Assembly (NCBI RefSeq): GCF_030384885.1
Contig: NZ_CP128614.1
Direction: 5' to 3' (one strand)
Source: Escherichia coli
Lineage (GTDB): Bacteria; Pseudomonadota; Gammaproteobacteria; Enterobacterales; Enterobacteriaceae
DNA: 64,000 nucleotides
Shown in pieces: positions 53,201-56,200 of the stretch. Every line of letters begins with the position of its first letter. Within the stretch, counting starts at the first letter, position 1. A program made the position numbers.

Positions 53201-56200
53201 GCTCTTAACACCAGGTATCATCTGCTTATGAAACGTTGGGCTTCCTGAATTAAAGTAACTTTTACGGAGAGCATGCCCGCATTATCAGTTCTATGCTTCT
53301 CCATTTCTGCCCCGGGTCAAAGCATTGCACAGTTGGAAGAAAACATGCCGGTCTCTTAAGCTTGCTGCTCAGTTTGGTTCCGGTGCTGAAAAACCTGCCA
53401 ACGGTGCTTTAGGAATTCAGTATTGATGGGTTTACGCAGCGGCTTAATAAACTCTCCTTGATATGCCGCTAAATCATGATCTACCGCCAAAGCTTCAGCG
53501 AGAATGTTAACCTCCAACGTCACCGGATGAATGGCAATCATGTTTGCGTCGAAAAGATCGTGTATATCATGGCGTAAGAGCAACCCATTTGTATAATGGT
53601 CTACTCCTCCGTTACGATGCTCCATCAGATGAGCAGCCTCAGTGCGCTGGCGCAGTCTAGAGCCTGTAATCACACATTGGTCATAACAGTTGTTGCGGAC
53701 GGCTTCTGCAAATGAGGCCTGATCTGGTCGTGTCTCGACAGTTGTCTTACTACCCTTACGCTTACCCGGTACAGTAGTTTCATCAGGAATATTCGGCTGA
53801 AGCTCCTTTTCTTCTATACCATCAGTCTTCATAGCGACCATAATCGCGGCCGGTGGAGATTTAGGCTGATCTTCCTGCGATCTTTCGCGGCCACCAACTG
53901 GATACCCTAGAAAACCCTCAATGATCTCTAGTGGAGGTAATGTAGCGTTTGAACGTGCATAAATAGCGAACTCTGCGGCACGTCCGCCGGGAATATATCT
54001 ACGTACCAGTATTGGAAGAGAGGCTTCTTCATCTGGTTCCTCTTTTTCCGACAGGATTATTCGTTCGGTGAGACGGGCTGAATTTTTTTTCATTTCACTC
54101 AACAGTCTATTGCGTTCTTTTACCTTTCGGTCATTATCCTCCAACATCTTACGATGACTAACCTTAGCCAGATGGTCTTCCAGTTCCTGTATATATTCGG
54201 GATCGATAGTGTCAATTAGACCGAACGCCATCAACCGCTCCCCCCTTGTTTTACAAGATTCTAGCCGAACGCGAATGTACTCCTTACGCTTGGCCATCAA
54301 ATGTTCTTTTTGTTTTTTTTCTCGAATTACACGGAGCTGAGTATTGTAATTAGAATAAACGGTTTCGCTATTCTGCTCTGTCTCTAGAGCAAATTTTTGT
54401 AGGTGTTCACGTAGTTTTTTACGGGTATTTTTGGGGGCATGCATTACGGTACGCTCAATGTATGAGCCTGTGCAGCGTAAAGAAAGTACAGTTTCAGCAT
54501 GGGAATAACCAGCATTGAGACGATAGCGGGCAATTTTAAGCAAATTATTAAAGTGTGCACCATTACATATACCTAGTTCTTCCAAGACACGACGTTCTCT
54601 ATCATTAATAGATGGATGGTTAATATCTTTTACTTTGTTTGCCATGTCCTGTGTCTCAGTGCCTATTCAGCCGGAACATCTACTACATAAAGAACGAGAT
54701 TGTACAGAAATCAGCTAAGTTTATGAATAAAAAAGGCCGCAAATTTATACTTTGCGGCCTTCACTGTTTAACACCATATTTTAGTAAATACGTTTAATTT
54801 TCATTAGGTTATATTTGAAACTCACCTACCTTTTATTTTCATTAAGCCACTGATCCGCTTTATCGACACGTGACTGGTAAGGCTCATTTGTGTTGCTCAG
54901 CTCTGACTTCATGTACTGAATGAATTCATCTGCTTTCTGAGGCCCAAAGCGTGGGTCATCCGTCAATTGCTGCCGGATAGCCCTTTCAGAGTTCTGCGCT
55001 GCATTCGCATAAGTCGAAACGCCGTCGCTGCTAATACTCTGATACCGGTCACTTACAGCTGCGACGCCATCAGACATCTGCATGTGATTAAGGACTTTAC
55101 CCTGGAGAGAATCAGGCATATTTGCAGGGTTAGAGGCATCATTTGCTATCGATGTCTGGGTTTGAAGGATGCCCGCTCCCGTAAGCATCTCATTTACCGG
55201 TTTCGCCCCAACGCTGGTTAGCGTATCCGAAACAAATTGCTGGCCCCCGAGTAGCGCACCAGAAATCGCGCCCCGCTCAGTGTTGGCCTCTATCTTTTCC
55301 CCAACCAAGCGATCTGTGACGGTCTGAGTGCGGTTACCAACGAGACCACCGCCCGACCCACCCTCTCCTAGGTTTGCCCGTACGACTGACTCAAGTGAAC
55401 CATCAGCTCTGTTATGAGTGTTGAAACTGCTATGGATGCTCTGAACGTCATTCATACTCCAGTTAACGTTATAGTTACCCAGTTCATTAAGGATCTTCTG
55501 GGTATCCGCTTTGAGCTGCTCTCTTTCGGCACCGGTAGCCATGGTGCTGGCACCATAGGTAAAGACAGCTTGCTGTGCCAATTCAGCTCGCTTATCGTCC
55601 CGGCTTAAGTTCGGGTTGTTGGCAACACGACTAAAGTAGTTATCAGTGTTATTAGATAAGCCACGAACTTGACCGCTCTGATACATACTGTTCAAAGCAG
55701 TGGCTCGTTGATCCATTCCATCACCAACCACCCGACCTCCGGTAGCCTTTTCCAGATCGTTAAATGTGCCTTCTGCATTTCTGACATCCTGACCTGAATT
55801 GACGACTTTCTCTACACCCTGATTATTCAGTACAGGGCCATTCGTTTTGAGAGAATTGAGCACATTCCTTTCTTCATCAGAATAAGTGCGGCCCACGTTG
55901 TTGTTATGTATTCCCTGAATATCGCCTTTGCCCGCGTTATCAAGGTTATACGGAGTAAAGCCAGCTTCACTTTTTCCAGGGACACGCTGAGTCGCGTCCT
56001 GAGCGTTGGAGGAAAGACCGAGTTTAGCCTGCGAATCAACACTTCCACCCAGTTCCCCTACGCGTGACGCACTCATCACGCCAGACGTATTTACGCTGTC
56101 AGGAGTTCTATCCTGTGCCTGAGTGATAGTATTAATTCCTGACCCTTCGCCTGAAATTCTGTCGAGCTGATTGGTGATAGGTAGCAGCTGCTGTGCATTA

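Follow-up and report, generated by a model that had tools for sequence, protein, structure and literature searches.

The nucleases of the HNH_2 / COG3440 family (group 6 of the His-Me fingers) are known for restriction endonucleases, and among them are the type IIS enzymes HphI, AlwI and BbrI, in which the recognition region is separate from the His-Me finger (PMC5714182). Two modification-dependent type IV restriction enzymes that have no cognate methyltransferase, VcaM4I (EVE-HNH; Protein Data Bank (PDB) IDs 6YEX, 6YJB, 6YKF and 6YMG) and TagI (SRA-HNH; 6GHS), are single polypeptides in which an N-terminal sensor is followed by a linker and by a C-terminal HNH_2-type nuclease, placed after an R-x-x-Q-x-x-F helix. 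In VcaM4I most of the activity is lost when H224, D250 or D254 is replaced by Ala, H224A being among the most drastic variants, and removal of the sensor and the linker leaves a toxic, non-specific nuclease (PMC7897488). Here we analyze a gene with the same order of parts in a 64,000-nucleotide stretch of Escherichia coli DNA (contig NZ_CP128614.1 of assembly GCF_030384885.1; hereafter the window), which is IncHI2 plasmid sequence. The gene occupies positions 53356-54645 on the minus strand and encodes a protein of 429 amino acids (aa), for which we propose, giving the proposal about an even chance of being right, the role of a solitary, single-polypeptide, type-IV-like sensor-HNH defence endonuclease.

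The open reading frame (ORF) delimited by an earlier, sequence-only reading of the window is real and exact in its coordinates, with an ATG start, a stop codon at 53356-53358 and a match to HNH_2, and an identical coding sequence is annotated in plasmid pSTM6-275 (WP_001284752.1). Its only label in PLSDB is 'HNH endonuclease signature motif containing protein'. There, 517 records from E. coli, Salmonella and Klebsiella match the gene with an identity of no less than 99% (100% in hundreds of them), and at least 80% of its length is present in 508 of the 520 matching records; interrupted or shortened copies exist as well, on plasmids that persist (H29/H30). Because it is stably carried at such identity in 517 plasmids, the gene is non-toxic to its E. 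coli, Salmonella and Klebsiella hosts.

The only Pfam domain found in the protein is HNH_2 (PF13391), matched over the full profile (1-66) at aa 324-373 with a score of 41.2 bits, the cut-off being 21 (E=1.5e-10). The sequence-only reading had confined the HNH signature to the last 80 or so residues; its C-terminal position stood, and the alignment extends the conserved module to about 135 aa (aa 295-429), in which K-R-x-G...RPDQxxF is followed by C320/C324, the 'AAH339' motif, N353-G-L, H362-x-L-F-D366 and a tail. The four residues H339, N353, H362 and D366 do not vary among the sequences aligned (10 full-length, 24 C-terminal). When a family profile made from 24 C-terminal domains was compared with the PDB, the best match was VcaM4I (6YEX, E=6.2e-8), with TagI matching weakly (6GHS, E=0.31), and the profile alignment pairs H339, H362 and D366 with H224, D250 and D254 of VcaM4I, in such a way that the catalytic His and the two metal-ligand positions are conserved, although the D250 position is occupied by a His (H362) in the 429-aa protein. 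As judged from these alignments, the HNH catalytic residues are intact, with none of the degeneracy that would have spoken against the sequence-only reading, and the nuclease is predicted to be of the restriction-enzyme HNH_2 kind.

Further likenesses are more limited. Streptomyces HNH_2 proteins share the motif set RPDQARF...AAH...NGL...H..FD, and with ScoMcrA and SprMcrA, phosphorothioate-dependent enzymes that join a sulfur-binding domain (SBD) to an HNH nuclease, there is a weak match in the nuclease core only (NCBIfam NF045808, PT-DNA_restrict, at aa 321-399; E=0.0034 and 16.5 bits, far below the 180-bit cut-off); no SBD was detected in the 429-aa protein. Prophage and viral contigs often contain members of the broader subfamily of this C-terminal domain, in which the nuclease nearly always comes last, after 150-300 aa without annotation. 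Matches in PHROGs were solely to families of unknown function and through the nuclease domain only, and cultured phages gave just 8 matches, weak and C-terminal.

The N-terminal region (aa 1-294) sets the protein apart from VcaM4I and TagI. It is all-helical and unrelated to EVE, SRA and other PUA folds in both sequence and structure searches, and it contains a disordered linker rich in Pro and Glu as well as long charged helices. Neither a Pfam or NCBIfam domain nor a PDB sequence match was found in it, and no recognised reader of modified DNA (PUA, SRA, EVE, YTH or ASCH, SBD, NEco or winged helix) was detected, for which reason we stop short of classing the protein as type IV, although it most likely functions in the manner of such an enzyme. 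Comparison of the full model with the PDB by Foldseek returned nothing significant (the best match was MerR/CueR, E=0.78), the structure search of BFVD yielded only E values of at least 1.1, and Pfam at lax thresholds over 29 module copies gave nothing consistent. An N-terminus without recognisable domain, as claimed from the sequence, is confirmed at the level of Pfam, for a region that measures about 294 aa instead of 340 and that has defined helical parts and a linker. Pfam annotated hardly any of the N-termini of 10 HNH_2 proteins from viral contigs, which lends no support to their being 'readers'. A profile of the N-terminal region found 8 representatives among 1.84 billion, all of them HNH_2 proteins or truncated fragments; its fusion to other effectors was considered and rejected on these 8 matches. 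The A4 module profile, run against a set of 5.8 billion proteins, gave fragments only.

Ten full-length relatives, with identities of 29-90%, can be aligned end to end. The best-conserved N-terminal part is the second small helical motif (aa 200-250), its identity being 45-92% in the eight orthologues of full length and 22% in P0027, a distant relative; its helices in the AlphaFold2 (AF2) model span residues 210-217, 220-232 and 238-246, and the motif recurs weakly in other HNH_2 variants. Other enterobacterial HNH_2 proteins, with overall N-termini that differ, have the pattern of the small N-domain in one or two copies at their start. The long charged helices are poorly conserved and rich in indels (identity of 7-39% in distant orthologues and 60-88% in P0002, the 86% allele), and the linker retains 7-27% identity among distant orthologues, also with indels, while the conserved R-x-x-R-L-x-A-F-G turn between the helices shows 33-83% identity among orthologues. 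In the window protein the turn motif, R-x-x-R-L-x-A-F-G-(I/L)-(L/I)-(D/E) in its longer form, stands at aa 133-146. It occurs twice in the Salmonella orthologues P0007 and P0008, at aa ~73-86 and ~133-146 (DRKQRLRAFGMLDV, TREKRLMAFGILEV), which suggests an internal duplication of the helix-turn unit. The richness in K, E and R attributed earlier to the N-terminus holds for aa 100-200, where 43% of the residues are charged. The description 'coiled-coil-like' found weak support: AF2 does predict long helices, but the hydrophobic occupancy of the heptad a/d positions reaches only 0.43-0.47 in the best register. A canonical coiled coil was rejected on this signal, and because the heptad hydrophobicity is weak we prefer 'long charged helices' as the safer wording.

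Small helical modules, repeated 1-2 times and joined by linkers, are also what would be seen if the gene were a selfish, free-standing homing-type endonuclease, with NUMOD/HTH-like modules that bind DNA sequence-specifically, spreading by cutting sites that lack the gene and being copied in during repair. Single family members gave isolated sub-threshold matches of NUMOD-like (I-HmuI) or helix-turn-helix (HTH) type (E 0.047-0.17) and an 'HTH homing endonuclease' appeared in BFVD at E=4.2, but every one of these hints is non-significant, and the HNH_2 subtype is that of restriction enzymes. A single gene with its own predicted promoter, placed exactly in the space between a terminator and the gene that follows and polymorphic in its presence at one site among related plasmids, would suit homing; yet it is fixed in its lineage (508 of the 520 records, as above) and not patchy among near-identical plasmids, neither flanking repeats nor an intron or intein setting was found, and alleles at the same site go down to 57% identity with a swapped N-terminus, which is unexpected for a homing gene with one target. 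Relatives do occur on phage-plasmid and prophage contigs, but the orthologues described below lie beside restriction-modification (R-M) systems, Mokosh and PifA, and not inside conserved genes. Taking both sides together, we consider homing unlikely.

The exchange of the N-terminus can be followed in the alleles of the gene. In contig L090, TrhH, TrhG, SLT and DsbC are 94-96% identical to those of the window, whereas the HNH protein is only 57% identical. Synonymous divergence (dS) and the ratio of non-synonymous to synonymous divergence (dN/dS) were estimated by the Nei-Gojobori method against the alleles at the same site. The comparison with the 86% allele gave a dN/dS of 0.39 and that with the 57% allele one of 0.28, from which purifying selection is judged to act on the protein as a whole, its N-terminus as well as the rest. 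The dS values form a mosaic, being around 0.29 in the HNH part (close to the value of the neighbouring HAD gene, 0.17) and above 1.5 or saturated across the N-terminal part; since they are low in the former and saturated in the latter, recombination has evidently replaced the front half and left the nuclease in place. In addition, P0049 and P0050 carry the same N-terminus joined to divergent HNH_2 variants. Independent shuffling of specificity region and nuclease is the pattern expected of an arms-race gene. Over 54250-54750, which covers the start of the gene and the sequence before it, the DNA is markedly AT-rich, with a G+C content of 0.38-0.42, compared with 0.47-0.49 at the 3' end and around 0.5 in trhG; the low value of the 5' part is compatible with a foreign origin of the N-terminal part or with silencing of the H-NS type.

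The gene lies within the transfer region Tra1, 180 bp downstream of trhG (TraG_N, 1317 aa) and on the same strand, and on its other side come a convergent HAD_SAK_2 gene and then genes for an SLT lytic transglycosylase, a DsbC-like protein and DsbA, and umuDC. The sequence-only reading had assigned it to the transfer-region backbone. This term had to be given up. The gap between trhG and the HAD gene is empty in IncHI1 (pHCM1) and in an IncHI1B plasmid; it holds the 429-aa gene in the IncHI2 lineage of the window (some 510 multidrug-resistance plasmids, TrhG at least 99% identical), alleles 57% and 86% identical to the protein in contigs L090 and L093, respectively, and, in a second IncHI2 lineage (B; 418 records with TrhG identity of 95-99%, the gap content being that of one of them, pMS-37a), an unrelated PF01844 HNH protein and a YrhA-family gene on the other strand. 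We conclude that the 429-aa gene is lineage-specific cargo in a Tra1 hotspot and no backbone transfer gene. The companion statement, that this is not a standard conjugation gene, agrees with the lack of conserved presence and position across IncHI plasmids, and because the content of the gap varies among IncH plasmids the gene is not a conserved essential component of transfer. The predicted terminator-like hairpin after trhG is common to both IncHI2 lineages, whose sequences part directly after it; apart from this hairpin, no direct or inverted repeats or att-like sites flank the cargo. The hairpin and a promoter-like site lie between trhG and the 429-aa gene, although promoter-like sites in the region as a whole are no commoner than in shuffled sequence. 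This trhG-proximal hotspot appears to be new, no description of it having been found in the literature searched.

The variable occupancy of the gap bears directly on the idea that the protein assists IncHI2 transfer or the metabolism of plasmid DNA in an accessory role, acting in nicking, processing or regulation with TrhF-H-G, or in establishment or exclusion. Its place in Tra1 directly after trhG, on the same strand, and the identity of at least 99% kept in a very successful plasmid lineage would be natural for such a factor, and TraG_N proteins act in entry exclusion in related systems (F, SXT TraG-Eex). However, the plasmids in which the gene is absent from this site or replaced (IncHI1, IncHI1B and IncHI2 lineage B) are all typed conjugative, the strong hairpin and the gene's own promoter-like site, both predicted, would separate it from trhG, and orthologues occur in chromosomal islands and on a phage-plasmid with no transfer genes nearby. 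The membrane segment or signal that an exclusion protein would be expected to have is missing from the Pfam matches, no dedicated topology prediction having been made. A role in transfer is, in our view, very unlikely.

The cargo of lineage B was compared with the 429-aa gene. In pMS-37a (L010:7095-8672, corresponding approximately to window positions 53262-54728) a 353-aa PF01844 HNH protein is followed by a co-directional 168-aa gene of the YrhA family (NF038335), and PADLOC recognises neither protein; a toxin-immunity pair is possible. Both cargoes share the identical insertion site after the trhG terminator and a nuclease domain, but there is no significant BLASTP alignment between them, and the lineage-B nuclease belongs to another HNH Pfam family, lies on the opposite strand and has a small co-directional partner.

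That such a pair occupies the same hotspot would be in line with the 429-aa protein being itself a toxin, either for plasmid addiction or for competition between bacteria or plasmids: a generally toxic DNase, harmful to rival elements or to cells from which the plasmid has been lost, would be kept in check either by the N-terminus of the protein or by an antitoxin or immunity factor that has escaped recognition. Toxins commonly contain HNH modules (PMC5714182), HNH_2 domains may be toxic when isolated (PMC7897488), and the independent shuffling of N-terminus and HNH domain is reminiscent of polymorphic toxins. In the window, however, no co-directional ORF lies downstream, the next gene being the convergent, backbone-conserved HAD_SAK_2, and the small ORFs neighbouring the orthologues are not conserved among them. 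No secretion or trafficking domain was found by Pfam, NCBIfam or PADLOC, and the interrupted and truncated copies mentioned above belong to plasmids that persist. In evolved populations with pJXP9 the trhG-IS26 segment was lost and no killing was reported (PMC11575406), the presence of the gene in pJXP9 being unconfirmed. Among the roles of defence, exclusion and addiction proposed from the sequence, the last is thus disfavoured, as the window holds no immunity or antitoxin gene, and a toxin is likewise an improbable identity for this protein.

Defence, by contrast with addiction, gains indirect support from the type IV relatives and from the contexts of the orthologues. In a Salmonella island (L092), P0007 is flanked by a type I R-M system and by a full-length Mokosh MkoC (E=0), and the neighbours of another Salmonella orthologue, P0008, include a type I R-M system and a NERD helicase. 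An Enterobacter orthologue with 42% identity (P0004, on the plasmid-like contig L091) is located just upstream of a full-length PifA (PADLOC E=2e-238), with an ABC-type ATPase and CcdA also nearby. Further full-length orthologues were found in a small integrase island of Pectobacterium and on an E. coli phage-plasmid-like contig. The segment L091:7001-10697 comprises P0004, then a co-directional 86-aa ORF and PifA, and it is a possibility that P0004 shares an operon with this abortive-infection gene. At L092:8628-13224 the full-length Mokosh MkoC, of type II, is accompanied beside P0007 by a second HNH_2 protein, of 259 aa, which matches the PADLOC 'HNH' model PDLC04132 with E=1e-20, far better than the window protein does. 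No neighbour gene recurs across the 8 distinct orthologue contexts. A conserved partner gene was sought in the 90-aa ORFs upstream of the Pectobacterium and E. coli phage-plasmid orthologues and rejected, these ORFs being mutually unrelated.

The view of the gene as candidate effector of an uncharacterised system is correct in that no partner gene was found, but a sensor-nuclease fusion in a single polypeptide, which is a known architecture, fits better. As had been noted, no methyltransferase or ATPase adjoins it: its neighbours, in the window and in pSTM6-275, are the trhG, HAD_SAK_2, SLT and DsbC-like genes. In this it differs from HphI, AlwI and BbrI, with which it shares the Pfam family of the nuclease and the separation of the recognition region from the His-Me finger, but which have a cognate methyltransferase; none is adjacent here and none is conserved in the orthologue contexts. 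A nuclease that has no methyltransferase and yet is tolerated by many hosts must be auto-inhibited or specific for something that the hosts lack, and auto-inhibition of this kind is what the sensor and linker bring about in VcaM4I.

Under the sensor-nuclease proposal, the C-terminal HNH_2 module would cut and the fast-evolving, exchangeable N-terminal helices would choose the target, and this helical region, acting via the flexible linker, would also keep the nuclease harmless to the host. The gene would be transcribed on its own, from the predicted promoter 3' of the trhG terminator. The protein would then pair through its long helices, in such a way that two HNH domains, each acting on a single site, could together make a double-strand break. 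What the N-terminal modules bind would be some feature that is present in foreign DNA and missing from enterobacterial hosts, the most plausible one being a base or backbone modification, foreign to the host, in phage or incoming plasmid DNA. Binding, by analogy with VcaM4I, would lift the auto-inhibition and let the HNH domains cleave.

Several observations weigh against this proposal. The defence-island contexts belong to orthologues elsewhere, and the IncHI2 site itself adjoins genes for transfer and periplasmic folding. PADLOC matches the window protein only weakly (E=1.7e-5) and through its nuclease domain alone, and the 'HNH' model concerned is itself undescribed. In the AF2 model, built from a 10-sequence alignment, the predicted local distance difference test (pLDDT) value is below 50 at aa 319-359, so that the model does not confirm the HNH fold. 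Dimerisation is assigned to long helices that show no strong heptad pattern. Lastly, no phenotype or functional study of the 429-aa gene was found in the literature.

The coordinates of the features are given in Table 1, together with those of shorter HNH_2 paralogues that have the same C-terminal domain (42-44% identity) and adjoin the plasmid-borne H-NS gene in IncHI1 and IncHI2. The copy of pMY490-mcr-9 has 152 aa and lies directly 3' of an IS1, its short length at this place suggesting that it is truncated. Within the 64-kb window tblastn found no paralogue of the 429-aa protein; in many IncHI2 records of lineage A tblastn gave a second place, so that a paralogue beyond these 64 kb is probable for the plasmid that contains the window. 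Regarding the neighbouring HAD_SAK_2 gene (E=7e-20), its HAD domain is that of 'Swiss Army Knife' RNA-repair proteins. It is kept beside trhG in all IncH plasmids examined, even in those that have no HNH gene, and its identity between lineages is around 85% at the aa level, compared with 94-100% for its neighbours. Elsewhere in the window, the region from 1 to 46 kb mostly resembles an IS26-rich resistance region, and the only Rfam match was AAC_AAD_leader / attI site of a class 1 integron (71.2 bits).

Table 1. Positions of the parts of the 429-aa HNH_2 protein, of predicted signals and of related or neighbouring features (window coordinates unless a contig is named).
Feature	Position	Strand	Residues, basis or remark
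Small helical N-domain, 4-5 helices	54430..54645	-	aa 1-72; no recognisable relative; pLDDT 92 modelled alone
Long charged helices around a turn	54049..54429	-	aa 72-129 and 149-196, turn at aa 131-148; AF2 secondary structure
Second small helical motif	53896..54048	-	aa 200-250; EEAxL..LVRRYIPGG.AAEF...PL.IIEGFLG; alignment, AF2
Disordered linker, Pro/Glu-rich	53764..53895	-	aa 251-294; pLDDT 29-39
HNH_2 nuclease module	53359..53763	-	aa 295-429; RPDQxxF helix, beta-beta-alpha-Me core, conserved C-terminal tail
H339 codon	53629..53631	-	predicted general base ('AAH'); aligns with VcaM4I H224; invariant
N353 codon	53587-53589	-	structural Asn
H362...D366 codons (HDLFD)	53548..53562	-	predicted metal ligands on alpha-helix; align with VcaM4I D250, D254
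Promoter-like site	54699..54727	-	TTCATA-17-TACAAT, 54 nt upstream of ATG; consensus scan, predicted
Terminator-like hairpin after trhG	54732..54762	-	12-bp stem, 6 G-C pairs, T-run; left cargo junction; predicted
HAD_SAK_2 gene	52682-53248	+	
AAC_AAD_leader / attI site	39039-39117	-	Rfam
Shorter HNH_2 paralogue	L008:5665-7501		pHCM1, IncHI1
Shorter HNH_2 paralogue	L009:6947-7405		pMY490-mcr-9, IncHI2

The nuclease family and the sensor-nuclease architecture are already known. The N-terminal modules and their recombinational exchange appear to be new, as no description of them was found in the literature searched. We tentatively raise the possibility, which we rate as well short of probable, that the N-terminal helical region (the domain at aa 1-72, the charged helices and the motif at aa 200-250) represents a new class of nucleic-acid sensor, which, when exchanged between alleles by recombination, gives a shared HNH_2 nuclease a new target, and that the hotspot is an 'immune or competition locus' of the plasmid in which different lineages are armed differently. 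The region would then add a sensor type to the repertoire of reader-nucleases, with a potential use as a tool for finding DNA marks.

In E. coli, Salmonella and Enterobacter, IncHI2 plasmids are major carriers of mcr-1 and mcr-9, of extended-spectrum beta-lactamase (ESBL) genes and of genes for resistance to heavy metals. If the 429-aa protein is inactive or merely selfish, it would be the product of an ordinary accessory gene. If it is an active nuclease of defence or competition, it could shape which phages attack the plasmid-bearing hosts and which elements enter them, and it could bear on the success of one IncHI2 lineage. The trhG-proximal hotspot carries different nucleases in different IncHI2 lineages, and, should the tentative reading of a new sensor class be true, a globally dominant mcr/ESBL lineage would have a restriction activity of its own, directed at one particular class of DNA from phages or rival plasmids.

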